Positions 9,160-62,098 of a stretch of DNA of 64,000 bases are shown here, piece by piece. Under the pieces are notes generated by a model, which did no database searches, was not told where the DNA came from, and saw only the letters and a program-made list of their open reading frames with translations. Source of the stretch: Giardia intestinalis (Eukaryota). Position numbers and translations under genes: made by a program. The stretch lies in the NCBI GenBank assembly GCA_000002435.2, contig CM018791.1. One strand, given 5' to 3'. Position 1 is the stretch's first letter, and each line of letters begins with the position of its first letter.

Positions 9160-11097
9160 CCGAATTGCAGCCTCACAGAATGTGACACACTGGCCTGTGG
9201 TTACTAGCTTTGGGAGGCCTGGCCTATGGGCTTCAATTGCCATACTTATCCACCAAGAATGAACACTGCGAAGGTGCCTACTCATTATTTGACAATTCAG
9301 GTTTTACACATGTTTCCTTGTGCATTATTGGGAGGAAGCATGAAAAATCCACATTCTTCGAAGGTAAAGCTCCTGTCCCCTACATCTATTTTCTAATAAA
9401 GCATTCAACTGCACAGACTAAGTGCTGCAGCTATCTCATGGTATTGAAAACCGTATATACAGGCTTTATCCTCAGACCTGCTAGAGTTGATTGGGGGGCC
9501 ATTAGCCTACTAATTTGACATGAACAGAAGGAGTAATGTGCCTATTCGGTCGACATTGAGGGTTAAACCACACCAATGACTGACTATGTGCCACACGGAT
9601 CACTCCCAGTAAGCATTTGTTACAAACTAGAGAGTCCTGCACGGTCAATTTACAGCACATCTTTCCATCATAACCTTCAAAGTAGGCGTCCATTCTGTTA
9701 TCACATAGCCTGTTGAGCCATGAGTGACACCTGCAACGTTTCTGCTTAACAGATTAAATGTTCTAAGCTTGTTCTTTGAATAATAAGTATAGCTGTCCCG
9801 TATTATTTACACAGAGGTGAAGACACGATACACTTATGCGCCAGGATCGCATTAAATTAGACCTTGATTGATAGCTATATATTCTACTGATTGCTCGCGC
9901 TCTTGGATTGCAGAATGAATAAAAGGTAGCTAGATTGCATGCATTACTATTGTAGAGTAAGTTATTTTAGGACGGATCCTGCAATCCTACTGGTGTCCAT
10001 CTCCCTAGATATCTGCATCTGGAGAGGACTGTTTCCTGGCTGCCTGTGACAAGCATAAAGGAAACGTGTCTTGAAGAAAAGCACATTCACAGGGTCGTAT
10101 ATTAATGCGGCTCAGCATGTCCATCAAGATTGGCATCGGATGGACTTCTGACAGCTGAGTACAGGAGTGCCTAGTTGCGCAAACTGTGGACCCGCAGTTC
10201 CTAAGCATACTAAGTAGCATCTCTTCAGTTCTGTGGCCTAAGTCAAGCGTTCTGCAGATAGACTCCTAAGTTAATGTGCTTCTGGCTATGATTTTCAGCT
10301 CTGGAGGTTCTGTCCCGTCCGCAGACTACTACTTCTAGATACAGTCTTTCTGCATCGGGAGTGAGGGGCTCTGTGGCCTCTTACTCTCCCTTCATACAAA
10401 TACAGACAGGTCCTTGCAGAAGAGACCCAGAGCTCTTGTAGCATTTACGCTGTGGCTACGCACCGTACCTCCCCACGCTTCTCTCGGATACTCACGGCGG
10501 CTGTATCCCTGGTTGTCCACGCTACGTTGCCCCACATGAGAAGTCCATTAGCGAAGCGCTTGTGGTCACCGAAGCTGCCTGCTCAATATCGGTTAGCGGC
10601 CTTCACCGGTATTTCACGTCCACATATGCAAGGGGCACCTGCGTCTCAGCGCCGTCCCTCAGGCACTGTAGCAGGCGAGGTCTGACTTCGCTGCATTGGC
10701 GGTTTCGTGATATGCATCCAGCTACCCGATGTTTGGCAATGGTCTGTGCCAATTCCTGAGCAACTGGTAACAAATCCTTACCTGTTTAGAGTCATACCTG
10801 TGAAGGGTGTCCCTTACATCACGGAAGACCCTAGCCGCCGGTCGACGCTCGGCGCCAGATGCCTCCTGCGGGCCACGAGGAGCGAATCTGCATGGGTCTT
10901 CCCACATGCTGCTAGCGCCGGGCCGCCCGCCCATTGCGCGCATGACCAACGCCTCGGCGCCAGACCCGCAACGCAGGAGGAGTGTGTGTTCATTCACTCT
11001 TTGCAAACGAGCAAGATATTCAGATCCAGCCCCAACAATTCTTAAGTAATGAGCTGCGACGTCTAAGCTACAGCCGTATTCAATGATTTACAGAAAA

Positions 11098-14000
11098 TTA
11101 GAGCTGAACCATGGATGGTTGTCTGGAACCATTTAGTAGAGGTGCAGTAGAGTACATAGACGCAGTAAGACTAGAATTGCGAGTGAGTTGCGGCTTAGGA
11201 AGCCCGCGACCAGGCTTCCGCGGGGCACGCTCCCTCAGTACACCGCTCTTCCTGGGCCGTATCACGAACCACCAGACGAGGAAGCCGGCCACCGCAGCGA
11301 GGACGAGGAGAACGACGACCACGATCGCAGCTGTTGTGCCGGCAGACGATTTGTTAGATGGAGCAGGGACTCCGCAGACGAAGTCGCTTGTGAGAGAGAA
11401 GCCTTCATCGCATATGCAAGTGGGCTTTACGCCGTTCTCAGACACGCACCTGCCGTTGCCCCCGCAGATCGTCACGGTGCCGTCGGTGCCGCGCTGGATG
11501 CACTGGCTGCTGATGCAGAGCCCCTCGGAGACGGTCTCGTAGCCGCTTCTGCAGCTGCACAAGCCCCCGTCGGAGAGCTGGCAGTCGCCGTTCCCCCCGC
11601 ACAGCGTTCCACTGGAAACGCAGGCCGATGGGTAGCAGAGGGTCCCGTGGAGGGTCCAGCCTTGTCTGCAGCTGCAGATCGCAGAGGACCCTTCACCAGT
11701 ACACTCTCCTCCGCCGTTGCAGACTTTCCCGTCCTTGAGACACCTTGTGGGGATGCAATCAGTCTTGACCAGAGTATAGTCTTTTGCACACAGGCAGCCG
11801 TAGGTGTCGCCGGTCTTCTCGCAGGCGCCGAAGCCGCTACAAAGCTTGTTGTCTGACGAGACGCAGCTGCTATGCACACAACCATTTTGACCAGGGAGGT
11901 TCTTAAAATTGGGGGCCTGGCAGTTGCATGTTCCTGTGTCACCGGTCTCCGTGCACGTCCCACCACCATCACAAACTTCTGAAAGAATGCTCTCGTGCGC
12001 CCCGAAGCACTCCTTGACGAAGCACTGGCCGGTCTTCTTGTCTGTACGGTACCTGCTGTTGTCGCACCTGCACATTCCTGTACCAGTGGTGGCTTCAACG
12101 CATGTTCCACGGTTATTACATATCTTAGTAATGTCATCAGCGTGATCTCTCGGCATGCATTCTCTATATACGCAGACACTTGATCCAATGAGAATTGTTC
12201 CAGAATTGCAACTACATTCCCCAGTGGCCTCGCCGTTGTCATTGCACGTACCCATACCATAGCACGTTTTTTCTGTCTGATCGTATGGATCCGTCCAGAC
12301 GCACCTGGACTTCCGGCACTTCTTGCTAGCACTGTCAACGACGAAGCTCGAGTTGACGCAGACGCAGTTGAAGCTACTGCCACCAAACTGACAAGTTCCT
12401 GCATCAGTATTTTCTTCCATACTACAGCTATCTTTTGGACAGTTGCTAAGATAACATCGCTTATCTGTGTGTTCCAGGTACCCATCATTGCAAGCCTTGC
12501 ATTGAGGACCTTCGTACCCAGGGTAGCACTTACATGTCTTTTCTTCTATAGAGCAAGTTCCCCTTCCGCTGCATATCATGGTTGTGTCTGTCTCCGAGAC
12601 AGCACATACCTCCGGGATACACACATAATTTCCTAATATGCCTTTGACTGTTTTGTAGCCAGACTCACAGCTGCAAGAATATTCTACGGTATGATCCCCC
12701 TTGCATGTTCCGTGACCAGAACACTCGACATTCCTGAAGGTGTTTCCAGGCAGGACGTCACTGAGACACACTCTCTTGATGCACTTTTTATTCTCCAGCT
12801 GGACAATGTCAGATCGCTCTATACACTTGCAGTAGGGTTCGGATGACTGAGTGGTATTCAGAATGCACATTCCAAACTGTCTTCCGCCGCATGTAGTATT
12901 CATTTTGGTGTTATCTAGTTTTGTAATCTCAAATATGCAAGCCTTTGGCAGACAGAACCCATCAAGTTCTTCGTACCCGTCAGGCCTCGGGTCCTTGCAC
13001 TTACAAGCGTAGTCTCGACGATCGCCGTGCGACGCTATCTTTGTGCACACACCAATCGTGTCACCGCCACATACGGATTCAGTGAGCCTTCCGTTACTGT
13101 CTGTAGCATTGATGAAGCAATTGAGACCAACACAGACCTTATCCACCAACTTGGTCCCTAGATTGCATATGCATCCATCAGGTCCACACCTACCCGCGCC
13201 TCCACAGATCACCGGTACGTCCTTGTCTTTACTAGAAATACACTTTTCTAGCACGCATGTCTTCCTCAGCTCGCCGCTTGCGTCTCTAAGTGTATACGCA
13301 TTCGCACCATTAGTACACGTGCATTGCTTGTCCTTCAATAAACCGTTGGCACTGCATGTTCCCAGCCCGTTACACTCTATGGCGGCGTCGTTCGCAGACG
13401 CCCTATACATGCACTTGCTCGGGACACACGTGTCTCTATTTCCATCTTGATTTCTTTTATCACTCAGTTCGTAGCCCTCGGAGCAGACGCAGCCGTAGCG
13501 GTTATCATCTCCCTTCACGCACGAAGCCAAAGAGTCACCTCCGCAATACTTATCCCCAGACATGCAGCTTTGGTGAACGCAAAGCCCATTAAAAGACTTG
13601 TATGAAAAAGCACACTTGCACGAGTACGTGTTTCCATTAGAATCTTGTGTGCAACTCCCAACGGTGCCGTCGTAGACCTTGCATTCGACGTACTTAAGTT
13701 CTCCATTGTGGATCACCTTTCCGGCGCACCCGGGGTGAGTGCAGTAACCACCAAAGGCCTCAAAACCATCCTTACACTCACATCCATATCGGCCGGTCAG
13801 CTGGTTGTACGCGCAGACTCCCTTCCCAGAGCAGACGTGGCGATCTAACGTTAGCTTCCTTGCATCGGCTGCCGTCACGCCCACAGGCAGGCAGTCGTAG
13901 CTGTAGCACATGTCACCGATCCTCAGGAAGCCCGGGTTGCAGGTGCAGGACTCATTTTCGTTTATGTAGCCAGCTCCGGGGCCGCCGCATAGACCTCTTG

Positions 14001-16179
14001 CTAGCTTAGTCTGTGGATTCGCATTCTTGCTTTTTAAAATGCACGTCTTGTTGTATGTAACATAGTCCCCAGTGCAATTACACTGCCACGTCGTGTCCCG
14101 GCCGACGGTGCAGTGGAGTTCGTGACTGCCCAGCGCAGCGCAGTACTTAGGTGCTCCTGGGCCGGCGAGCTTTTTATCAAGCTTGCACGCATTGGTGACG
14201 CACGCCTTTAAACTTTGGTCCCACGTAGCATCTGGACCGCAATCGCATTCATATCCTTCGTTACCATCCTTCTTTTTGACACAGTCTCCCACACCACCAC
14301 AGTAATTGTACCACATATGATAAATAGATCTACCGTCGTGACAGTCGGTATGCATGCAGGTTGCATTGTTTTCCCCAAAGTGTACAAGATGAAAGCCAGT
14401 TGGGCACACAGTGCACGTTTCAGGTAGATTGGAGCCTTCAGAAGGCTTAGCACAGGTTGGCATTCGATCGTCCTGAAGACTATCTGTCAGCCCCTCTAGG
14501 AACCCACAAAAGAACCTTCTTGTCTTATCTATCTTACTGATAAATACACATCCAGGTTTAGCAGAGAAGGTGCCGTTGTAGGCTGAAACGTTCCCATCAC
14601 TGGAGCCTTTAGGGACGCATGTGATGAACGGATTGCTAGGATCTCCATAAGTGGTGTACGTGCCTGTGTTCCCGCAGATATCCTGAGCAGTAGCCGTGCG
14701 CAGACTGGGCTGTGGATCCGGTGGTTGTTGTTGCACAATGCACTTCTTTGCAATGCATTTCTTGTCAATCACTTGCGCATTTTGTTGATTACATTCTGCG
14801 CACTTAGCTCCTGTGTAGATAGGCGAACACTGGCACGTCATCGTATAAGGAGCCTCAGCACTAACGACAATGCGTCCATGATCACTGCAAACCGTGGCAG
14901 GGATATCCACCAGACTGCTCAAGATGCAGCGCCCTGGAGCGATGTAGGTATAGTCCTGATCACAAGTGCATTGTATATTTCGTAGATCGTCCGTCTTGCA
15001 CGTGCCGTGCCCCGAGCAGACCTTCCCAAGTTCCTCGTCCATGCACGCGGGGGACGTGCACTCTCCGTCAACGGCAATGAGCATGTCCGGGCAGCGGCAG
15101 TGGTACTCGCCATCGAACTTGACACATGTTCCTCCGTTCTTGCATGATTCTCGCTTGTCTGAGGTGAGGCATCCCACTGGAACGCACTTGCCATTTATCT
15201 TAGCAGACTTGTCAGTGCAAGTATCGCAGAGGTCGCCCGTGGCAAGTCCCCGGCAATCGCACTTATAGCCAGCGCCGTCACGCACACAGGCGCCCACTCC
15301 GCCACAGATCTTCGAGTTGGAGCTATCGGTGCAGGTCGGATGCGTGCAGAACTCACCAACCTGGACTGCATTAGAATCGCAAACACACCTGAAGGTGCCG
15401 GTATTTCCCTCATCTGTGCAGTTCCCAAAGCCCCCGCAGACGACCGGGGACCCGTCGATCGTGGCCACGCACTCTGTCCTGACGCACTTGTGTCCAACGC
15501 GTGTATATCCCGTCTCACAGGCACAACGGTAGTGGTATGATTCGCGATTGAGGCCTACGTCGAGGACACAGTTACCATGTCCTGAGCACACAGTGCCGTC
15601 AGGATCCTGGCAAGCCCGTGGGTTACAAGTGGGGAGATTGTCCTGTGAGGGAGTCTTAGCATCAATTGCGTTGGCGTCGTCGCACGACTGGCAGAGACTC
15701 CCGCGGTAGATCGGGTAGCAGTCGCACGCGTAGTCGTCAGCACTCAGCCCGGCCAGCCCGGGGTCCTTCAGGAGGCAGCGGCCGCGGCCGTTGCAGGGAG
15801 GCTTCGTTGCCTCCTGTCCTGAGAGGTCACCGGTGTTGAAGCAGCTCTTCGGCAGGCACTCGCCCTCGTAGGACACGAAGCCATCGGGGCAGGGGTCGCA
15901 CGAGTACGCCCCCGCGTAGTAGGTGCACTTGTTCGACTCTGTGCACTCCGTCCCGTTCACGAGGCAAGCGTAGTTGACGGCCCTGTCTGCGGGTGTCTGC
16001 CCACTGGTAGTTACCCTGCGGAACCCTGCACGGGGAGCATCGCACGCAGCCCCCGCCCAGCCCCGCCTGCACTGGCAGAAGTATGCTCCGTCCCCGTAGG
16101 TGCAATTTCCGTGGACGCACTCGGGGCCTGTTCCGCATGCACTGGCGAGGAATGCAATAGCATACAGGAGAATCAGCAT
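11098..16179 (-). CDS. High-cysteine membrane protein (HCMP; VSP-like, EGF/CXXC-rich), 1693 aa
   Basis: ATG verified at 16179..16177. The N-terminus is a signal peptide (MLILLYAIAFLASA). Hundreds of Cys in CXXC/CXC spacing with GxCxxC-type repeats. A single C-terminal TM (IVVVVLLVLAAVAGFLVWWFVI) is followed by a roughly 45-aa cytoplasmic tail, which distinguishes it from VSPs ending in CRGKA. Confidence 0.85.
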   Translation of the reverse strand: MLILLYAIAFLASACGTGPECVHGNCTYGDGAYFCQCRRGWAGAACDAPRAGFRRVTTSGQTPADRAVNYACLVNGTECTESNKCTYYAGAYSCDPCPDGFVSYEGECLPKSCFNTGDLSGQEATKPPCNGRGRCLLKDPGLAGLSADDYACDCYPIYRGSLCQSCDDANAIDAKTPSQDNLPTCNPRACQDPDGTVCSGHGNCVLDVGLNRESYHYRCACETGYTRVGHKCVRTECVATIDGSPVVCGGFGNCTDEGNTGTFRCVCDSNAVQVGEFCTHPTCTDSSNSKICGGVGACVRDGAGYKCDCRGLATGDLCDTCTDKSAKINGKCVPVGCLTSDKRESCKNGGTCVKFDGEYHCRCPDMLIAVDGECTSPACMDEELGKVCSGHGTCKTDDLRNIQCTCDQDYTYIAPGRCILSSLVDIPATVCSDHGRIVVSAEAPYTMTCQCSPIYTGAKCAECNQQNAQVIDKKCIAKKCIVQQQPPDPQPSLRTATAQDICGNTGTYTTYGDPSNPFITCVPKGSSDGNVSAYNGTFSAKPGCVFISKIDKTRRFFCGFLEGLTDSLQDDRMPTCAKPSEGSNLPETCTVCPTGFHLVHFGENNATCMHTDCHDGRSIYHMWYNYCGGVGDCVKKKDGNEGYECDCGPDATWDQSLKACVTNACKLDKKLAGPGAPKYCAALGSHELHCTVGRDTTWQCNCTGDYVTYNKTCILKSKNANPQTKLARGLCGGPGAGYINENESCTCNPGFLRIGDMCYSYDCLPVGVTAADARKLTLDRHVCSGKGVCAYNQLTGRYGCECKDGFEAFGGYCTHPGCAGKVIHNGELKYVECKVYDGTVGSCTQDSNGNTYSCKCAFSYKSFNGLCVHQSCMSGDKYCGGDSLASCVKGDDNRYGCVCSEGYELSDKRNQDGNRDTCVPSKCMYRASANDAAIECNGLGTCSANGLLKDKQCTCTNGANAYTLRDASGELRKTCVLEKCISSKDKDVPVICGGAGRCGPDGCICNLGTKLVDKVCVGLNCFINATDSNGRLTESVCGGDTIGVCTKIASHGDRRDYACKCKDPRPDGYEELDGFCLPKACIFEITKLDNTKMNTTCGGRQFGMCILNTTQSSEPYCKCIERSDIVQLENKKCIKRVCLSDVLPGNTFRNVECSGHGTCKGDHTVEYSCSCESGYKTVKGILGNYVCIPEVCAVSETDTTMICSGRGTCSIEEKTCKCYPGYEGPQCKACNDGYLEHTDKRCYLSNCPKDSCSMEENTDAGTCQFGGSSFNCVCVNSSFVVDSASKKCRKSRCVWTDPYDQTEKTCYGMGTCNDNGEATGECSCNSGTILIGSSVCVYRECMPRDHADDITKICNNRGTCVEATTGTGMCRCDNSRYRTDKKTGQCFVKECFGAHESILSEVCDGGGTCTETGDTGTCNCQAPNFKNLPGQNGCVHSSCVSSDNKLCSGFGACEKTGDTYGCLCAKDYTLVKTDCIPTRCLKDGKVCNGGGECTGEGSSAICSCRQGWTLHGTLCYPSACVSSGTLCGGNGDCQLSDGGLCSCRSGYETVSEGLCISSQCIQRGTDGTVTICGGNGRCVSENGVKPTCICDEGFSLTSDFVCGVPAPSNKSSAGTTAAIVVVVLLVLAAVAGFLVWWFVIRPRKSGVLRERAPRKPGRGLPKPQLTRNSSLTASMYSTAPLLNGSRQPSMVQL

Positions 16180-18578
16180 ACAGTGATTTTAAAGATGGCT
16201 CCGGGTTATTATGTGCTAGCATACCATGAATATAAGAAGGAAACTTGTAAGTTTGTCATTTACAAACGAAAGTATACTGTTTCTGAGCTGTCCTCAGATG
16301 CTGCGTATAGCAGGATTAAATCGATACGTCACAAGGTTGTAGTTATTTACACGTCTTTTAAATATTGCTTCATTTCAACGAGGCGTTGCTTCAGTCTTCG
16401 TAGACATAGAGCACTATATGGTTGCACTCTTGATACTGAAGGCTAAAAGCGCTGAATTTCGAGGATTGCTCAGACTGATGAAGTAGATTGACACGAGTAC
16501 CAGGTCATTGTAACGTCGATAGCTATTGCCGTCATGCAAGGAGACGTTATGTCACGAAAAGGCCACGACTCAGATATTCTCGGTAGAGTAAAGAATTGCT
16601 CTTACAAATGAAGAATAAGAGGCGTGAAGGGACAGACAGTGGAGCAGAGTACAAAACGAAAAGGCAAGCTAATTGCTTTCTTTTAGTGGCGTATACATCC
16701 ATGAGACAGACCTCGCGGGCCCATTGCAGTCGATCTCCGTGATCAACGGGAGAGTCTGTGGCCCTTGTGCGGGTCTGGCGCCGAGGCGTTGGTCATGCGC
16801 GCAATGGGCGGGCGGCCCGGCGCTAGCAGCATGTGGGAAGACCCATGCAGATTCGCTCCTCGTGGCCCGCAGGAGGCATCTGGCGCCGAGCGTCGACCGG
16901 CGGCTAGGGTCTTCCGTGATGTAAGGGACACCCTTCACAGGTATGACTCTAAACAGGTAAGGATTTGTTACCAGTTGCTCAGGAATTGGCACAGACCATT
17001 GCCAAACATCGGGTAGCTGGATGCATATCACGAAACCGCCAATGCAGCGAAGTCAGACCTCGCCTGCTACAGTGCCTGAGGGACGGCGCTGAGACGCAGG
17101 TGCCCCTTGCATATGTGGACGTGAAATACCGGTGAAGGCCGCTAACCGATATTGAGCAGGCAGCTTCGGTGACCACAAGCGCTTCGCTAATGGACTTCTC
17201 ATGTGGGGCAACGTAGCGTGGACAACCAGGGATACAGCCGCCGTGAGTATCCGAGAGAAGCGTGGGGAGGTACGGTGCGTAGCCACAGCGTAAATGCTAC
17301 AAGAGCTCTGGGTCTCTTCTGCAAGGACCTGTCTGTATTTGTATGAAGGGAGAGTAAGAGGCCACAGAGCCCCTCACTCCCGATGCAGAAAGACTGTATC
17401 TAGAAGTAGTAGTCTGCGGACGGGACAGAACCTCCAGAGCTGAAAATCATAGCCAGAAGCACATTAACTTAGGAGTCTATCTGCAGAACGCTTGACTTAG
17501 GCCACAGAACTGAAGAGATGCTACTTAGTATGCTTAGGAACTGCGGGTCCACAGTTTGCGCAACTAGGCACTCCTGTACTCAGCTGTCAGAAGTCCATCC
17601 GATGCCAATCTTGATGGACATGCTGAGCCGCATTAATATACGACCCTGTGAATGTGCTTTTCTTCAAGACACGTTTCCTTTATGCTTGTCACAGGCAGCC
17701 AGGAAACAGTCCTCTCCAGATGCAGATATCTAGGGAGATGGACACCAGTAGGATTGCAGGATCCGTCCTAAAATAACTTACTCTACAATAGTAATGCATG
17801 CAATCTAGCTACCTTTTATTCATTCTGCAATCCAAGAGCGCGAGCAATCAGTAGAATATATAGCTATCAATCAAGGTCTAATTTAATGCGATCCTGGCGC
17901 ATAAGTGTATCGTGTCTTCACCTCTGTGTAAATAATACGGGACAGCTATACTTATTATTCAAAGAACAAGCTTAGAACATTTAATCTGTTAAGCAGAAAC
18001 GTTGCAGGTGTCACTCATGGCTCAACAGGCTATGTGATAACAGAATGGACGCCTACTTTGAAGGTTATGATGGAAAGATGTGCTGTAAATTGACCGTGCA
18101 GGACTCTCTAGTTTGTAACAAATGCTTACTGGGAGTGATCCGTGTGGCACATAGTCAGTCATTGGTGTGGTTTAACCCTCAATGTCGACCGAATAGGCAC
18201 ATTACTCCTTCTGTTCATGTCAAATTAGTAGGCTAATGGCCCCCCAATCAACTCTAGCAGGTCTGAGGATAAAGCCTGTATATACGGTTTTCAATACCAT
18301 GAGATAGCTGCAGCACTTAGTCTGTGCAGTTGAATGCTTTATTAGAAAATAGATGTAGGGGACAGGAGCTTTACCTTCGAAGAATGTGGATTTTTCATGC
18401 TTCCTCCCAATAATGCACAAGGAAACATGTGTAAAACCTGAATTGTCAAATAATGAGTAGGCACCTTCGCAGTGTTCATTCTTGGTGGATAAGTATGGCA
18501 ATTGAAGCCCATAGGCCAGGCCTCCCAAAGCTAGTAACCACAGGCCAGTGTGTCACATTCTGTGAGGCTGCAATTCGG

Positions 18579-53762: not shown

Positions 53763-54024
53763 TTTTTCGGGCAGGATTTATTATTGACCAGAGGCTTTGT
53801 GGCACTCCTCTAGAGAAGATCTCAGTGTCAGCTTTAGGCCACTCCCATGGACATCGTCTGTTCCTGATCTCAGGGGCCCGTCAGGCTTCTCACGCTACCT
53901 CGCGGCTCCTCCGGGCGCGCGGCCCTGCTACTTCAAAGAGACTCGACTCCCAAGCCCCGCCTGGCCACCGAGCGGCCTGCAGGGTCCTTGCGCCCCCTGG
54001 GCCCGTGATGTGGCACATGGATGC

Positions 54025-54031
54025 GTTTACT
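54025..54031 (-). terminator. polyadenylation signal AGTAAAC 11 nt downstream of the VSP copy A stop
   Basis: Mirror of 61397..61403. Matches the AGTRAAY consensus. Confidence 0.55.
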
Positions 54032-54041
54032 ACCTGAGTAT

Positions 54042-56063
54042 CTACGCTTTGCCTCTGCAGATGAACCACCAGCAGAGGAACCCGACGAGCCCCCCGACTA
54101 CGACAATCACAGCAACAGAGATGCCGGCGATGGCCCCAGTGGAGAGGCCGCTCTTGTTCGTGCTTCCACCGGTGTTGTCGCTAGTGCCATCGCCCATCTC
54201 AAGGCACATGAACGCATCGGTGGATGACACCGTGCACTGCCTGCACCCAGCGAGCCCCTCAGAGCACGGATTACACTTTGTCCCAGCACTCTGCGGTTTG
54301 TAATATCCAGTGCTGCATGTAGCACAGGCGTTAGCGTCGTTAGCAGCCGTGCATGTCTCGCAGCTAAGATGGCACCTTTTATTGGAACAATCGCCATTAT
54401 CAGCCGTTAGACCACTGGCACATTTTGTACATTTTCCTCCCTGCACTGTAGTACACACTTGTTTACCAGGCTGTCTATTTGTTTGATAGCAACCGCCATC
54501 TTTGAGGAAGTAGTTATTTTCACATTGAGTGCATGCTCCATTACTCACCGTAGTGCAAAATCGTGTTCGCGTATTGGCCGCACAGTTGCCATCCAGTGGC
54601 GCTTGCTGAGCGTTCTTGCACTTTGAGCAGTATGCAGTTCCTCCTATCTGAGCCCCACACTCTGCGCATCCATCGTTTGTAGAACTCACACTGCACTGGT
54701 TCATGCACGTGCCCCCATTGGCAGGAGTATCAGCATCTGTATACTGAAGCATCTTCCCAGCAGGACAGGCCGTGCACTTATCAGCGCCCTCACCCTTGCA
54801 CTCTACGCACGCATCGTTGCACTTCTTGCAGGTCTTTTTGCCACTATCGTCTCCGTAGTAGCCCTTGAGGGTCGTGCAGTCAGATACGCATTGACTGGTT
54901 GGGGTGAGGTAGTACTCAGACAGACACTTTGTACAGACCTCCTTATCAGCGCCTTCACCGGTGCACTCCAAACAGTGCTCTGTGTTACAGTTACTGATTG
55001 GTCGGCATTCAGTCGATTCAGTATTAGGCTGGAGTCCTTCGTTGCACTCGCACACTTGGCTATCCTGTCCGGTGGCCTTGGGGGTAGAGTTAGCAGGGCA
55101 ACTAGCAACGCACGACTTTTTGTTGAGGCCAAAGATGGTCTTATCAGAATCGGGGCACTCTTTGCATACTGCTCCGTCGCCGTTCTTTTCACAAGTCTTA
55201 CAATCTTTTGCCCCGCCCGATGTGCAGGTAGTGCAGGTCTTCGCTGCTTCATCTATGTAGTGTGTTGCTGGGCAATCGCCCTGATTAACGCACGTGCCTG
55301 TCTCACTGTCATCCTCCTTCTTCAGGTAGGGCGTGGCTTCAGTACACGAGGTACACTGCGTCTCTGTATTCTCGCATGTCTTACAGCTGGAAGCACATTT
55401 GCTGCACTTCTTTCCATTACGTGAGTCCACAAAATACCCATTATTGCAATCGGCCTCCTCGACACACGACGTTACGCCGTCGACTGTCTTGACAATCTTA
55501 CCGCCTCCACATGCATTACATGTAGCGGCTTTTGGTGCATCAGTCGCCTGCTCTGGCTTCTCGCAGGTGGTGCACCCATCTACGCCTGTGTACTTCTTAC
55601 CATCGCCAAGCGTCACTCCTTCGACGTCTCCACACCAGACAACCGACTGGTCTGTTTTGGTGGCCCCTGGAACAACAAAGTAGTTCTTTGTGGTAGCAGC
55701 CTCAGCGCATATCCCGTTTGTGGTAACCGTTTTACACATTTGATTGCCAGGTGTAGCGTCTTTTGAGTAACACCCGCCTTTGTACAAGAAATGATTTGCC
55801 GCATCGCACTGCTCGCACCTAACACTCGAAGCGTCAACGTTATCACCTGCCTTCTTTTTGCACCCGGCAGTTGTGACGGCGTTGTCATTTTGTGGTTTAC
55901 ATATTCCGTCAATAGGAACATTTCCTTGGTCTTTACACTCTGTGCATATCTCAGTGCTGCCAGCCATTTCACACATATTTTCCTTACATTTGCCAACCTG
56001 AGTATCTGCAGAACACGTCGCTGCGAGTGTACTCAGTGCAAAACAAAATGCCACCAACAACAT
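54042..56063 (-). CDS. variant-specific surface protein (VSP), 673 aa; copy A
   Basis: ATG verified. Signal peptide MLLVAFCFALSTLAATCSA. More than 80 Cys, mostly in CXXC pairs, with GGCY motifs (KGGCYSKD, DGGCYQTN). Single TM followed by the invariant VSP tail ...FLCWWFICRGKA*. Confidence 0.9.
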   Translation of the reverse strand: MLLVAFCFALSTLAATCSADTQVGKCKENMCEMAGSTEICTECKDQGNVPIDGICKPQNDNAVTTAGCKKKAGDNVDASSVRCEQCDAANHFLYKGGCYSKDATPGNQMCKTVTTNGICAEAATTKNYFVVPGATKTDQSVVWCGDVEGVTLGDGKKYTGVDGCTTCEKPEQATDAPKAATCNACGGGKIVKTVDGVTSCVEEADCNNGYFVDSRNGKKCSKCASSCKTCENTETQCTSCTEATPYLKKEDDSETGTCVNQGDCPATHYIDEAAKTCTTCTSGGAKDCKTCEKNGDGAVCKECPDSDKTIFGLNKKSCVASCPANSTPKATGQDSQVCECNEGLQPNTESTECRPISNCNTEHCLECTGEGADKEVCTKCLSEYYLTPTSQCVSDCTTLKGYYGDDSGKKTCKKCNDACVECKGEGADKCTACPAGKMLQYTDADTPANGGTCMNQCSVSSTNDGCAECGAQIGGTAYCSKCKNAQQAPLDGNCAANTRTRFCTTVSNGACTQCENNYFLKDGGCYQTNRQPGKQVCTTVQGGKCTKCASGLTADNGDCSNKRCHLSCETCTAANDANACATCSTGYYKPQSAGTKCNPCSEGLAGCRQCTVSSTDAFMCLEMGDGTSDNTGGSTNKSGLSTGAIAGISVAVIVVVGGLVGFLCWWFICRGKA

Positions 56064-56647
56064 TGTATTGTGGATTGGATTGCAATAAGATTCTGTTGGT
56101 GGTTGGACTGCTCCTGATAAGAAGACTCCATGCTTGCTAGTTCTTAATCAGCTTGAGACTCTTAGTCATTCATCTCAGAGGACAAAACCGGCATGTTCAG
56201 TAATGAGTGCACTGGCTCTCAAGCCGTACCACGTGTGCCGCTGGGGCCTACCTACATGTATGGTCCAGAAGTCTCACGGGCAAGCCTCGCTCAGTCCCTG
56301 GCCAGTCCGGAGGAGAGGGCTGGCCGCGGGTCGTAACGATAACCACAGCGGTGATAGGGAAGAGCTCCCTCCGTTTGTGGATCTGGGGTCTGTGCGTTCC
56401 TCGGCTGTTCCGCGGGCGTACGTGTCGATCTTTTCGAGGTTTTCTTACGGGCTCACTGTTCTACTGAGGGTGCCTCTCCTTGGTCTCTCTTCATAGTAGG
56501 TGAAGCTCTGGTCGTTGTCTTTTTAGATGCCCCCATCTGTCACAACTACTGCCGTCAGGGCTCTCTCCACCGGCTGAGATTCCACTCGATTGTGTGTCCG
56601 GTCTTGCGCCCCTTCTCGATCGTTGTCGTCGGGTCCCGGGGATGGAC

Positions 56648-58980
56648 TCATTCGGTTGTCAGAAGTAGGATGACAGGAGACGGTCGCTCTGGGTGACCAG
56701 GCTTTCGGCCCGGCCGCGTCTGATCAGCTTCGTCGGGTGCTCGTTCGCCTCTGCAGCCATGTGGGCGATGGCGAAGGCAGCCCGGACAGAGGTCCACGTG
56801 GAGCTCCTCGAGGTGCCCCTTGGACTTGGGGTGGAGGGATCCGTCTGTCTCGTCCCTGTACTTCTTGACCTTCTCGTTGTAGTAGGCATCCATCTGGCGG
56901 GGCTGGATGACACCCACGTCCACTGCCTTGCACTTGTCGACGAGCCAGATGTCGGGCTTCTGGTTCTGGTCGCTGAGGTGGCTGTGGGTCTCGACTTCCA
57001 GCTCTGCGTTGAACTTCCCTGAGACGCGGAGGTACAGGCACGCGACGATCATGTCGTGCCTTGTGGCAGCCCGGGCAGGTGCCTCTTGTCTGCGCCATGA
57101 TCGAGCCGCCCTTCTCCTTCAGGGCCCTTTCCTCCTCGGTCAGCACGCCGCACATCTGCAGACAGTACGCCGCCGCTCTATCCGGAAGCTGGTGTGTGCG
57201 CGTGAGGAGGCGGTTGGAGTAGGTCCCCTTCCCCTGCAGTGCCTGACCGCCCACCGACAGCTCCACCGGGTCCCTGGTCCCCTTGTTGACGTCCGGGGAG
57301 GCCCATGCCCTCCGCAGCTCGTCGTGGCAGAGCTCCGGCATGAGCAGGCCCGGGCCGCCCTTCTCCTTCGGGTACGCCAGGAAGTCGACCAGGCGATCGC
57401 AGCTTCTGTTGGTTAGTGCCTGAAGCCTTGTGCGACGCGTCTGTTGAGCTCCTCGTAGTCCGCCTTGTTCGATGTCATCTCGACCAGGGGGGCGTAGTTC
57501 ACCATCGGGACCACACAGAGTGACAGCAGGATGAGCTTCTGGTGGATGGTTATGGGGGCATTCTCAATCTTCCTCAGGGCAGTCTCGGCACCTGCGATGG
57601 CCTTCGGCGCGAGACTGGTAGGGATGGGGGACACCGGGTGGTTGAGGAAGGTCACCTCCTCGCCCGCCACGGTGGACTTGCATTTGTCGCTCCTGATCGT
57701 CAGGCCCATAGCCTGCTGTACTATTGCGCCTGCTGGGTACCCCTCGTCGTGGAGCGCCACGATGTCGTCCGCATAGGCAAGGAAGGTGATGCCCCTCCTT
57801 GAGGCGTCTCAGGAGGCGCTCGGTGGCCATGCAGAAGAGGAACATGCTGAGCGGGTCGCCCTGGGAGACGCCGCAGACCTCGCACTTCACGTCCCGGCTG
57901 TGCCTCGGCTCGAGGAAGTTCCTGATGTAGTCGATCAGGACCTTCGGGATGCCCGCCTCGTTCAGGGCTCTGACGACCTCTGCCCTCGGGAGCGAGTTGA
58001 GGGCGTTCTTTGTGTCGAGGGAGACGGCGTGCACCCCCGGCCTGCTGATGAGCTCGTGGGCCCTCCTCACGCCTACCGCGTATGCGTTCTGCATGAAGGC
58101 GATCTGTTCGCATGAGGGGTAGTTGGCATGCCTGATCAGTCGCTTCAGCAGGATGCGGTGGAAGATGCTTGTCACCGTCTCGCCATCGCGATCGGGGGTA
58201 TCCATCGGACTCCTTCAGGGTGGGTGGTCAGCTCGTTGTACGCCTGCGTGAGGTACTTCACGAAGCTGTCGTTCTGCTTCATCGCCTGAGCTGGACCGCC
58301 CGAGACCAGACAGGCCTTGTTGAGGGTTCCAAACAGGGCCTTCCTCATTTCTTCTTCGGTTGCCGGCTCCAGCCCCGTCGAGCTCATCGATGGAGGGCAG
58401 TCAAAGCCAACGTAGCCTTCGGGGAGGACGCACGGGTGTAGCGCGCTGAGGGCGGTCGGCCTTCTTCGGCTTGTCTACCATGGGTGTGCCATCAAGGGCG
58501 CGGAGAGCCTTAGCAACTGCCCCGAAGCTCAGCGCGTTGTTCACCCTGTTTGCTATCCGGCGCCTCGCCCTCTCTGGATCTGGGTCCGACTTGCCTGGGA
58601 CTGCTCCGGGTGTTGCTTGAGTCTTCTAGCAGTTTCCTACCAAGGCGTCTAGACCCCTGATAGCGGGGAGCGCGACCCCAGTCCCTGCCTGCTCGATGCT
58701 CGCGATCATGCGCGCACCCTGGTGGATGAGCATGGCAGCTGTCTGATTCGGTATGTGGGACGGAATGATCAGTTTGTCGTCACCTAGTACTCTGTGTCTG
58801 TCATCATTTGCTTCTCTCAGGTGCTCGGTTAGTTGTTTAGCCTCTCGCACGGCAGGCCACAGAGCCAGCGTGTGTGTCCTGCTGAGAGAGTAAATGTCTT
58901 CGGAGTGGTCTCCCAAGTAGAGACTCACGGCTTGCTGTTTGGGGTCTCGGAGGTACGATCTTGCGTTCATAATGTGGATC
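56648..58980 (-). mobile_element. degenerate non-LTR (LINE) retrotransposon remnant, GilM/GilT/GilD-like: RT followed by CCHC and a restriction-like endonuclease domain; multiple frameshifts
   Basis: Minus-strand ORF fragments in three frames. ORF 57564..58205 carries RT motifs (...SLDTKNALNSL..., ...GVSQGDPLSMFLFCMATE...). The next frame holds motif C, LAYADDIVALHDEG (around 57745..57790). ORF 56724..57341 has a Cys/His cluster (CPGCHKARHDRR). ORF 56648..57052 has a PD-(D/E)xK-like KPDIWLVDKCKAVDVGV motif. The region is about 62% GC, higher than its surroundings. Confidence 0.75.
57413..58205 (-). pseudogene. reverse transcriptase domain of the LINE remnant, disrupted by a frameshift between motif B (QGDPLS) and motif C (YADD)
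   Basis: Motif B lies in frame with ORF 57564..58205. YADD lies in the frame of 57413..57760, whose M in the track is an alternative-start artefact. The two overlap out of frame. Confidence 0.7.
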
Positions 58981-59364
58981 GGGTCCTCGCGGGCTCTCCT
59001 TCGCCTCAGGTCCAGCTGTGTGCACGCCCGCGGAACAGCCAAGACACAAGACCCCAGATCCACAAACGGAGGGAGCTCCTCCTATCACCACTGTGGCTAT
59101 CACTGCGACCTTCGCCTTCGAGCTGGCCAGGGACTGAGCGAGGCTTGCCCGTGAGACTTCTGGACCATACATGTAGGTAGGCCCCAGCGGCACACGTGGT
59201 ACGGCTTGAGAGCCAGTGCACTCATTACTGAACATGCCGGTTTTGTCCTCTGAGATGAATGACTAAGAGTCTCAAGCTGATTAAGAACTAGCAAGCATGG
59301 AGTCTTCTTATCAGGAGCAGTCCAACCACCAACAGAATCTTATTGCAATCCAATCCACAATACA

Positions 59365-61386
59365 ATGTTGTTGGTGGCATTTTGTTTTGCACTGAGTACA
59401 CTCGCAGCGACGTGTTCTGCAGATACTCAGGTTGGCAAATGTAAGGAAAATATGTGTGAAATGGCTGGCAGCACTGAGATATGCACAGAGTGTAAAGACC
59501 AAGGAAATGTTCCTATTGACGGAATATGTAAACCACAAAATGACAACGCCGTCACAACTGCCGGGTGCAAAAAGAAGGCAGGTGATAACGTTGACGCTTC
59601 GAGTGTTAGGTGCGAGCAGTGCGATGCGGCAAATCATTTCTTGTACAAAGGCGGGTGTTACTCAAAAGACGCTACACCTGGCAATCAAATGTGTAAAACG
59701 GTTACCACAAACGGGATATGCGCTGAGGCTGCTACCACAAAGAACTACTTTGTTGTTCCAGGGGCCACCAAAACAGACCAGTCGGTTGTCTGGTGTGGAG
59801 ACGTCGAAGGAGTGACGCTTGGCGATGGTAAGAAGTACACAGGCGTAGATGGGTGCACCACCTGCGAGAAGCCAGAGCAGGCGACTGATGCACCAAAAGC
59901 CGCTACATGTAATGCATGTGGAGGCGGTAAGATTGTCAAGACAGTCGACGGCGTAACGTCGTGTGTCGAGGAGGCCGATTGCAATAATGGGTATTTTGTG
60001 GACTCACGTAATGGAAAGAAGTGCAGCAAATGTGCTTCCAGCTGTAAGACATGCGAGAATACAGAGACGCAGTGTACCTCGTGTACTGAAGCCACGCCCT
60101 ACCTGAAGAAGGAGGATGACAGTGAGACAGGCACGTGCGTTAATCAGGGCGATTGCCCAGCAACACACTACATAGATGAAGCAGCGAAGACCTGCACTAC
60201 CTGCACATCGGGCGGGGCAAAAGATTGTAAGACTTGTGAAAAGAACGGCGACGGAGCAGTATGCAAAGAGTGCCCCGATTCTGATAAGACCATCTTTGGC
60301 CTCAACAAAAAGTCGTGCGTTGCTAGTTGCCCTGCTAACTCTACCCCCAAGGCCACCGGACAGGATAGCCAAGTGTGCGAGTGCAACGAAGGACTCCAGC
60401 CTAATACTGAATCGACTGAATGCCGACCAATCAGTAACTGTAACACAGAGCACTGTTTGGAGTGCACCGGTGAAGGCGCTGATAAGGAGGTCTGTACAAA
60501 GTGTCTGTCTGAGTACTACCTCACCCCAACCAGTCAATGCGTATCTGACTGCACGACCCTCAAGGGCTACTACGGAGACGATAGTGGCAAAAAGACCTGC
60601 AAGAAGTGCAACGATGCGTGCGTAGAGTGCAAGGGTGAGGGCGCTGATAAGTGCACGGCCTGTCCTGCTGGGAAGATGCTTCAGTATACAGATGCTGATA
60701 CTCCTGCCAATGGGGGCACGTGCATGAACCAGTGCAGTGTGAGTTCTACAAACGATGGATGCGCAGAGTGTGGGGCTCAGATAGGAGGAACTGCATACTG
60801 CTCAAAGTGCAAGAACGCTCAGCAAGCGCCACTGGATGGCAACTGTGCGGCCAATACGCGAACACGATTTTGCACTACGGTGAGTAATGGAGCATGCACT
60901 CAATGTGAAAATAACTACTTCCTCAAAGATGGCGGTTGCTATCAAACAAATAGACAGCCTGGTAAACAAGTGTGTACTACAGTGCAGGGAGGAAAATGTA
61001 CAAAATGTGCCAGTGGTCTAACGGCTGATAATGGCGATTGTTCCAATAAAAGGTGCCATCTTAGCTGCGAGACATGCACGGCTGCTAACGACGCTAACGC
61101 CTGTGCTACATGCAGCACTGGATATTACAAACCGCAGAGTGCTGGGACAAAGTGTAATCCGTGCTCTGAGGGGCTCGCTGGGTGCAGGCAGTGCACGGTG
61201 TCATCCACCGATGCGTTCATGTGCCTTGAGATGGGCGATGGCACTAGCGACAACACCGGTGGAAGCACGAACAAGAGCGGCCTCTCCACTGGGGCCATCG
61301 CCGGCATCTCTGTTGCTGTGATTGTCGTAGTCGGGGGGCTCGTCGGGTTCCTCTGCTGGTGGTTCATCTGCAGAGGCAAAGCGTAG
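59365..61386 (+). CDS. variant-specific surface protein (VSP), 673 aa; copy B, identical to copy A
   Basis: Identical translation. ATG verified at 59365. CRGKA tail. Confidence 0.9.
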   Translation: MLLVAFCFALSTLAATCSADTQVGKCKENMCEMAGSTEICTECKDQGNVPIDGICKPQNDNAVTTAGCKKKAGDNVDASSVRCEQCDAANHFLYKGGCYSKDATPGNQMCKTVTTNGICAEAATTKNYFVVPGATKTDQSVVWCGDVEGVTLGDGKKYTGVDGCTTCEKPEQATDAPKAATCNACGGGKIVKTVDGVTSCVEEADCNNGYFVDSRNGKKCSKCASSCKTCENTETQCTSCTEATPYLKKEDDSETGTCVNQGDCPATHYIDEAAKTCTTCTSGGAKDCKTCEKNGDGAVCKECPDSDKTIFGLNKKSCVASCPANSTPKATGQDSQVCECNEGLQPNTESTECRPISNCNTEHCLECTGEGADKEVCTKCLSEYYLTPTSQCVSDCTTLKGYYGDDSGKKTCKKCNDACVECKGEGADKCTACPAGKMLQYTDADTPANGGTCMNQCSVSSTNDGCAECGAQIGGTAYCSKCKNAQQAPLDGNCAANTRTRFCTTVSNGACTQCENNYFLKDGGCYQTNRQPGKQVCTTVQGGKCTKCASGLTADNGDCSNKRCHLSCETCTAANDANACATCSTGYYKPQSAGTKCNPCSEGLAGCRQCTVSSTDAFMCLEMGDGTSDNTGGSTNKSGLSTGAIAGISVAVIVVVGGLVGFLCWWFICRGKA

Positions 61387-61396
61387 ATACTCAGGT

Positions 61397-61403
61397 AGTA
61401 AAC
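61397..61403 (+). terminator. polyadenylation signal AGTAAAC 11 nt after the VSP copy B stop
   Basis: Sequence gcgTAGatactcaggtAGTAAACgc. Confidence 0.55.
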
Positions 61404-62098
61404 GCATCCATGTGCCACATCACGGGCCCAGGGGGCGCAAGGACCCTGCAGGCCGCTCGGTGGCCAGGCGGGGCTTGGGAGTCGAGTCTCTTTGAAGTAG
61501 CAGGGCCGCGCGCCCGGAGGAGCCGCGGACACGTCTCAGGCAGGGCGACGGCCTCCGGTGCCCAAGACCGGTTACACACGGCGGGGTGGACAGAAATTAT
61601 AGTTTCATATGGCTCCTTTTGTCTAGGGAAGCAACTCGTAGTTATTTGGCTTCTATTTCAGAATATCTTTACTGAGCGTCAATTCTTGTGATACTACATA
61701 CTGAAGAGTTATAAAAAGTACTCAGAATATATTGTCAAGAGAATACGAAGCGCCTATACAATAGAGTGTACGCATATTATGCACGTATTCAGGCTCACTT
61801 TGCTTAGTTTAGTTGTATTTAGCTATAACTTTTCAGAGAACTTTACACTGGATTGCAAAGGCGCTCAGTGGTAAGTGACATTAGGATGAACGCAGATCTG
61901 GGTTATTTCTATTCATGGCATGGCTTGCACCTAACTAACCAGTAGAACTAATAGCTAATATCCATGAAATACTAGATACGTAGTTTACTGCACAACCTCA
62001 ATTAGAGCAAGTGGTAAGTACACTGCGATACGCTTCTTCAGCTGTGTACTCTTGAGTAGATATTTATAAGTAAAGCATCTGAGTATTAAGCATAGTGC

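Follow-up and report, generated by a model that had tools for sequence, protein, structure and literature searches.

Chromosome 3 of Giardia intestinalis WB C6 carries two identical genes for a variant-specific surface protein (VSP) that lie head-to-head on opposite strands, and the DNA between them holds the remains of a retrotransposon. This arrangement raises the question of how a dead element came to occupy the middle of a gene palindrome, and what part it had in the making of that palindrome. The stretch analyzed here, referred to as the window, comprises 64,000 nucleotides of contig CM018791.1 (GenBank assembly GCA_000002435.2). A preliminary description of it had recognized a decayed long interspersed nuclear element (LINE) in the spacer and proposed that it had inserted into, or replaced, the center of a pre-existing palindrome whose edges then eroded. 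The analysis described below points to a different order of events. The spacer is probably a dead relic of the GilD family that belongs to a single truncated unit, composed of the relic and an inverted repeat on either side, which was multiplied as DNA, the long VSP arms being secondary. Other copies of the relic have the same 5′ truncation, the same 3′ end and the same flanking inverted repeat, and the arms around them are of very different ages.

The VSP palindrome and the relic in its spacer

The features of the locus, with positions in the window and strand where one applies, are the following.
53901..56305, left perfect palindrome arm; holds a VSP gene with 141 nt beyond the stop codon and 242 nt ahead of the ATG
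54042..56063, minus strand, VSP gene of 673 aa with the C-terminal end CRGKA (Pfam VSP, E=3.7e-77; exact-sequence match)
56235..56419, family-wide inverted repeat, copy next to the 3′ end of the relic; 185 nt, about 20 nt of which are an insertion specific to this locus
56420..59023, minus strand, asymmetric core: decayed, 5′-truncated relic of a GilD-type retrotransposon without long terminal repeats (non-LTR); 2,604 nt, G+C content (GC) 0.61
56530..58970, minus strand, remnant of a single open reading frame (ORF), aa 1-876 of AAM12686.1 (tblastn and frameshift-aware alignment)
56789..57064, minus strand, restriction-like endonuclease (RLE) remnant, KPDIWLVD...D...KKY; 88% identity to AAM12686.1 aa 689-787
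57063..57077, minus strand, surviving half (CPGCH) of a CCHC zinc knuckle (translation and multiple alignment with four other copies)
57509..58181, minus strand, reverse transcriptase (RT) domain; motifs through GDPLS in one frame, YADD in another
59024..59193, family-wide inverted repeat, copy next to the 5′ end of the relic; 170 nt, directly abutting the truncated ORF
59123..61527, right perfect palindrome arm, reverse complement of the left arm
59365..61386, plus strand, second VSP copy, identical 673 aa, head-to-head with the first

The arms 53901-56305 and 59123-61527 were compared as ungapped reverse complements and no mismatch was found over their 2,405 nt. The outer edges are sharp, while on the inside a direct comparison placed the first mismatch at 56306, and the next 14 nt hold 5 mismatches. 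GC is lower outside the core, 0.52 in the arms and 0.50 over the whole window. The ATG-to-ATG spacer measures 3,301 nt, so that the locus consists of two identical inverted genes a few kilobases apart, which is what defines a duplicated VSP pair. The genes are GL50803_00119706/119707 (XP_001704601/XP_001704607; KAE8302693/4, on NC_051858.1 in Table S1 of the preprint cited below). The location is chromosome-internal, as the preliminary description had it: the genes around the pair are ordinary ones, with a kinase (XP_001704609) and GL50803_0032938 as its neighbors, the remainder of the window is gene-dense, and no telomere repeats were found in it.

The pair appears in Table 2 of Xu et al. 2020 (Sci Data, PMC7000408) as Chr 3, 119706, 119707, '<- ->', 673 aa, 3301 bp, psiRT, and in Table S4 of a preprint (Rodriguez-Walker et al. 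2022, bioRxiv 10.1101/2022.03.07.483299) as 'Pseudogene; Two retrotransposon relics'. Section 1.5 of the preprint calls the two genes 'tail to tail', whereas its own Table S4, the 2020 table and the sequence show them head-to-head. A link between retroelements and VSP duplication, also suggested in the preliminary description, is real and was already in print: psiRT is listed in 4 of the 7 head-to-head VSP pairs (Xu et al. 2020, Table 2), and the preprint noted a close similarity between the spacers of 119706/119707 and 111933/111936 and proposed transposon-driven VSP duplication. The relic at this VSP locus is thus known from the reference-genome paper, and the association between GilD and VSPs dates from 2001. 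Both the 2020 paper and the preprint record the presence of a remnant only, with no relic ends, family-wide repeat or shared truncation. The common truncation point, the bracketing repeat and the arms of very different ages on one unit add some detail to that record.

Perfect inverted repeats invite the suspicion that the palindrome is an assembly artefact and that the relic really lies beside a single VSP gene. Duplicated VSPs of the older assembly have been questioned as artefacts (2022 preprint), and the orthologous locus of isolate DHA2, considered below, has only a partial repeat. However, the window matches the assembly built from PacBio reads and an optical map, which lists the pair explicitly; the 2007 assembly was independently annotated with two VSPs (XP_001704601/07) flanking RT ORFs; and in DHA2, which was assembled independently, the relic likewise lies between two VSP sequences of opposite orientation. 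An artefact is therefore extremely unlikely.

The identity of the element was established by comparison with AAM12686.1 (P0042), an 878-aa Giardia protein annotated as 'putative reverse transcriptase/endonuclease'. A tblastn search matched aa 1-867 of this protein over 58970..56559, the sole copy in the 64-kb window, and the frameshift-aware alignment from 58970 to 56530 gave 803 matched codons with 90.5% identity. Compared with AAM12686.1, the relic has suffered about 14 frameshifts and has lost 18, 20, 8, 7, 6 and 4 aa in separate deletions. A TAG stop at 58623-58621 ends the first reading frame, and fragments of one protein are spread over all three minus-strand frames. The frameshifts between motif B (GDPLS) and the YADD of motif C, at about 57797, and between the RT and the endonuclease, at 57438, 57418, 57366 and 57062, had been noticed before; they are real and account for a small share of the total. 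Two ORFs of the spacer match exactly XP_001704605/6, which carried the 2007 annotation 'Reverse transcriptase/endonuclease, putative', and a third (57413..57760) clusters with AAM12686.1 at 90% identity at least. Alignment with four other copies revealed deletions of 53, 59, 21 and 10 nt that are private to the window copy, with a 6-nt repeat at the 21-nt deletion, 2-3 nt of microhomology at the 53-nt deletion and none at the 59-nt deletion. Every other fetched copy of the family is also broken. Since the ORF is shattered and the N-terminal zinc-finger DNA-binding region is absent, the relic is, judging by its sequence, enzymatically inert.

The domain content agrees in part with the preliminary reading of an RT followed by a CCHC knuckle and an endonuclease. 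Stitching the frames of the relic produced a Pfam RVT_1 match (E=1.2e-16), and the best eukaryotic matches of the RT in the PDB are R2 structures. A C-terminal profile, built from AAM12686.1 and two intact relatives, matched the CCHC and RLE regions of R2 (9nl3_A, residues 985-1131, E=3.1e-6; 9dou_A, 4e-6); the window copy itself gave no significant Pfam match for CCHC or endonuclease. RT and endonuclease are thus present, the latter frameshifted and with a 21-nt deletion inside it at 56852/56851. The CCHC is there by half, its remainder having been removed by the private 59-nt deletion at 57062/57061.

It could be imagined that the palindrome has a function, either as the source of a long hairpin RNA (2.4-kb stem, 2.8-kb loop) feeding RNA interference-type control of VSPs, or through regulation of the divergent VSP promoters by the relic. 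At this locus only the geometry, with perfect arms spanning both genes, suggests such a role, although abundant antisense transcripts and retroposon-derived small RNAs have been reported in Giardia (PMC2583053; PMC10999387). The relic decays freely, as its frameshifts and private deletions show, Rfam gave no match over 53.5-62 kb, the expression values of 119706/119707 in the preprint tables are low, and most VSP pairs have other spacers. We regard a function of this kind as very unlikely.

To assign the family, RT-domain sequences labelled GilM (AF433875) and GilT (AF433876), taken from the supplement of PMC10088271, were compared by BLASTP. GilM and GilT are 66% identical to each other in this domain, while the stitched window RT is 33% identical to either and the AAM12686.1 RT 33-34%. 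The labelled domains do find the window RT by tblastn (E about 3e-25), with 29-40% identity per segment. Two metagenome proteins, P0049 and P0050, are 63-65% identical to GilM or GilT and are for that reason taken as GilM/T-type. These comparisons set the window element apart as a third Giardia family, deeply separated from the other two. The idea that the relic is a displaced fragment of a telomeric GilM or GilT, which the shared host and the shared domain architecture might favor, is effectively refuted by these values. In addition, the long 3′ untranslated region (UTR), tandem array and telomere repeats of those elements are all missing; primer sequences of Genie-1 (PMC1950533) are absent from the window and all fetched loci, a weak piece of negative evidence; and the spacer has no canonical G-quadruplex motifs, in which GilM and GilT are reported to be rich.

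The relic is therefore assigned to GilD, by elimination and by published traits: its RT is 33% identical to GilM and GilT and about 90% identical to AAM12686.1, whose source record carries no Gil family label, and it is a dead copy next to VSPs. The account of GilD in PMC2861651 is that of a dead family, disrupted by microhomology-mediated internal deletions and located in gene-poor regions beside VSPs. The frameshifts, stop codon and six deletions of the window copy bear out the earlier impression of a dead, GilD-like element, and the best matches remained within Giardia families. The family falls within the R2/CRE-like group, in which one ORF encodes RT, CCHC knuckle and restriction-like endonuclease, and its members share more than 50% identity. 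Arkhipova and Morrison (PNAS, 2001) speak in their title of three Giardia families, 'two telomeric, one dead'.

P0050 and P0049 have intact ORFs, of 1,055 and 1,134 aa, which comprise zinc finger, RT, CCHC and RLE and were found on metagenome and Sequence Read Archive contigs of roughly 5 kb (the P0050 ORF at L008 1800-4967 and L009 1572-4739; GC about 0.49). They look like a living GilM/T-type element of some other Giardia lineage.

Other copies: ends, flanking repeat and arms

Further copies of the relic were fetched from DHA2 (assemblage AII), where there are six (L001, L002, L003, L011, L012 and L013) in addition to the locus orthologous to the window (L004); from three metagenome contigs with a 747-aa VSP (L005-L007); and from the assemblage-B isolate GS (L010). 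The assemblage-A copies are 84-88% identical to window 56433..59043 at the nucleotide level (BLAST), or 91-93% when substitutions only are counted. A VSP gene is present in the fetched stretch of L001-L007, L010, L011 and L013, and it is directly adjacent in all of these except L001.

The window copy and five of the DHA2 copies (L001, L002, L011, L012 and L013) start at the same 5′ position, and their 3′ ends are also identical. The N-terminal zinc-finger region is absent from the window copy and from all assemblage-A copies that have a 5′ end. An assemblage-B relative, P0046, aligns with AAM12686.1 from its residue 336 on and has 335 extra N-terminal residues with C2H2-type fingers (a weak zf-C2H2 match, E=0.006). 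An N-terminal finger is found as well in P0050. Because the fingers are present in P0046 and P0050, their absence points to a truncation and not to a different family. Upstream of the first ATG, the frame in the window reads LDLRRRRAREDPIHIM, which is homologous to P0046, and the nucleotide stretch homologous to L010 sets in at 59018, at a distance of five bases from the edge of the repeat.

P0046 is encoded at L010 1-3327 in an open frame of 1,108 codons that includes the zinc-finger region and has a VSP gene adjacent to it. It is not intact either, having lost part of the CCHC and being frameshifted in the endonuclease. A homologue search with P0046 returned the protein itself and one unrelated protein only.

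Immediately outside the relic, 56235-56419 and the reverse complement of 59024-59193 are 92% identical, and the outer 71 nt of 56235..56419 fall within the perfect arm. The remaining, degraded inner pairing (56306-56419 with 59122-59024, 114 and 99 nt) has about 90.6% identity with 15 gap columns, and homology ends there. Degraded homology next to the arms had been seen correctly in the preliminary description, which let it run too far, to 56480 and from 58980. This repeat is not peculiar to the locus. An inverted repeat of roughly 170-185 nt flanks all other copies examined (L001, L002, L003, L011, L012, L013 and L005-L007). Position 56235 is exactly where homology to the L005-L007 flanks sets in, and L001-L004, L011 and L013 share this homology. 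The flanking sequence follows the element in every copy and also precedes it, inverted, wherever the 5′ end is present. It occurs beside head-to-head and tail-to-tail VSP pairs, beside single VSPs, and also where the fetched stretch showed no VSP. The notion that the element landed in the center of an existing VSP palindrome and that its edges eroded does not fit with the same inverted repeat around every other copy examined.

The arms that extend beyond the short repeat differ greatly from one locus to another.
L011: inverted repeat of 169 nt at 88% identity and no longer arms; its neighbors are a VSP and, on the opposite side, a transporter gene
L013: core repeat of 125 nt inside long, decayed arms (72-93% identity) that extend as far as two tail-to-tail VSPs
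L002: arm identity of 99% at the outside, falling to 81% beside the element
Window: arms 100% identical outside, about 91% inside

Given that the repeat is family-wide and the arms are of differing age, and that L011 has the repeat with no longer arms, the short inverted repeat is part of the relic unit and older than the locus-specific VSP arms.

Identical junctions can also be explained in another way. Site specificity is typical of LINEs that encode a restriction-like endonuclease. GilD could then be a site-specific LINE, as its relatives R2, CRE and Genie 1 are, that targets the center of a short VSP-associated palindrome, the relics being independent insertions and the flanking repeat a split target. 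The 5′ and 3′ junctions are identical and the flanks homologous in all copies, as this would require, and for Genie-1 insertion at a specific site within a chromosomal repeat has been reported (PMC1950533). On the other side, ORF homology to the longer assemblage-B relative reaches the edge of the repeat, leaving no 5′ UTR, and the N-terminal region that would bind the target is missing in all assemblage-A copies. The hallmarks of target-primed insertion are also lacking: neither a poly(A) tail nor a target-site duplication, both of which the preliminary description had proposed to look for, is present at the relic ends in the window, the flanks are inverted rather than direct repeats, and the 5′ end is invariant. 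No empty palindromic site, with the repeat halves and no relic between them, was found in the window or the 13 loci, which is a small sample. Independent site-specific insertion is for these reasons considered unlikely. The shared truncation within the ORF, the loss of the DNA-binding region, the identical 3′ ends and the inverted flanks make spread as DNA from one dead founder the most likely explanation.

The orthologous locus in DHA2 (L004) permits a look at the same site in a second lineage. Its unique flanks are 98-99.6% identical to WB. Its two VSP sequences share a perfect repeat of only 759 nt, the outermost part, and the right-hand VSP is without its 5′ half and joined to the middle of the relic, at the equivalent of window 57640. 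The relic body of L004 matches that of WB at 90.5% and resembles other DHA2 copies at about 95%; for its 3′ end and repeat the identity to WB reaches 98.4%. Within the VSP, the 3′ third (window 54250-54750, mirrored at 60680-61180) is 65-84% identical between the window and L004, against 96-99.6% for the 5′ two-thirds and about 99% for the flanking genes. This makes the VSP a mosaic and suggests segmental conversion from another VSP in one of the lineages. Provided that the DHA2 assembly is correct, the relic would predate the split between A1 and A2, and the perfect arms in WB would be the result of very recent arm-to-arm conversion or re-duplication, with exchange between paralogues in the region.

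The right-hand VSP of L004 (7139-8539, approximately window 60436-61527) is annotated with 419 aa and no ATG; its structure is either genuine or the product of mis-assembly. Both L003 (1-825) and L004 (8227-8438) have VSP-like coding sequence that runs directly into the interior of a GilD relic. The two junctions lie near each other without coinciding, at the equivalents of window positions of about 57712 and 57640, which hints that rearrangements between VSPs and the relic are recurrent. Extra short fragments of the relic 3′ end were found within the palindrome arms of L002 (467-610) and L013 (7783-7919). Fragments of this kind may be the basis of the two relics counted in the preprint; the window's own arms hold no second relic fragment.

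Proposed spread of the unit and formation of the arms

We propose the following sequence of events. The founder would have been a single truncated unit of about 3 kb, made of inverted repeat, relic and inverted repeat, from which the assemblage-A copies descend. This unit would have been multiplied as DNA in VSP-rich, gene-poor regions and not through repeated retrotransposition. At some loci the short inverted repeat would then have been extended outward into long, VSP-bearing arms, and the arms would have been kept identical, or re-created, by recombination or gene conversion between them. The relic, as the non-palindromic loop, would be free to decay.

Several points weigh against this sequence of events. 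The complete copies outside the window are all from a single short-read assembly, that of DHA2, in which repeats and palindromes may be collapsed or chimeric. A site-specific LINE whose short form is its full length would also yield identical 5′ ends and flanks. Perfect arms could come from a single, very recent duplication as well as from gene conversion. The low identity between the WB and DHA2 relic bodies (90.5%) could come from ectopic conversion or mis-assembly. The GilD assignment comes from elimination and published traits, and microhomology is clear at only two of the four WB-specific deletions.

A more active part for the unit can be put forward tentatively. The repeat of about 170 nt that brackets the assemblage-A relics may seed VSP palindromes, in which case a dead LINE unit would organize the duplication and homogenization of antigen genes. 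Break-induced or template-switch repair starting in the repeat would copy a neighboring VSP outward in inverted orientation, and later conversion would keep the twins identical. The bare 169-nt repeat of L011, the young or perfect arms of L002 and the window, and the decayed arms of L013 could then be successive stages. We consider this possible, though clearly less probable than the spread of the truncated unit as DNA. The shared truncation point, the bracketing repeat and the arms of different age would, if confirmed genome-wide, provide a concrete, testable route for the duplication and homogenization of Giardia surface-antigen genes and would explain why a LINE family without living copies sits specifically beside VSPs.

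The window contains a second perfect inverted repeat, 5975-10970/16768-21763, whose arms of 4,996 nt are reported as 100% complementary and each carry an 808-aa NEK-type kinase with ankyrin repeats. Its 5.8-kb spacer (10971-16767) contains the gene for a 1,693-aa EGF-rich, cysteine-rich protein and no RT remnant, and both its inner and outer edges are sharp. A relic is therefore not required for Giardia palindromes in general. Eroded inner edges as a general trait of such palindromes were considered and rejected, given the sharp edges of this one.

Comparison with known systems

The window relic has the traits that characterize GilD: it is a Giardia-specific RT/endonuclease LINE, all examined copies are broken, it has internal deletions, it lies in gene-poor, chromosome-internal regions adjacent to VSPs, and it is distinct from GilM and GilT. 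No feature was found that contradicts its membership in this family. With GilM and GilT (Genie 1-type) it shares the host and an architecture of N-terminal zinc fingers, in the intact relatives, followed by RT, CCHC and RLE. Those elements differ in being intact; they are about 5.5 kb in size, have long 3′ UTRs and form head-to-tail arrays at telomeres. The dead relic, by contrast, measures 2.6 kb, lies inside the chromosome between the two copies of an inverted repeat, and is 33% identical to them in the RT. Burke et al. in 2002 reportedly described a Giardia 'Genie' family with inverted repeats of up to ~172 bp on its flanks, a length that would agree with the 169-185 nt of the repeat found here. 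R2 retrotransposons (9nl2/9nl3, 8gh6, 9dou, 8ibw) have a homologous RT, a C-terminal CCHC and a PD-(D/E)xK endonuclease in a single ORF. They insert in 28S rDNA and the homology is distant, and the window copy, unlike them, is truncated and non-functional.

At the level of the whole locus, parallels come from two other systems. Ampliconic palindromes of the human Y chromosome are kept identical by arm-to-arm gene conversion, and in Leishmania repeat-mediated inverted duplications occur at degenerate retroposons (SIDERs). The Giardia locus differs from both in its scale of a few kilobases, with one antigen gene per arm, and here conversion and amplification are inferred. As in the Y palindromes, near-perfect arms surround a unique, diverging spacer, and as with the SIDERs, dispersed repeats of a dead retroposon would serve as recombination substrates in a parasite genome.

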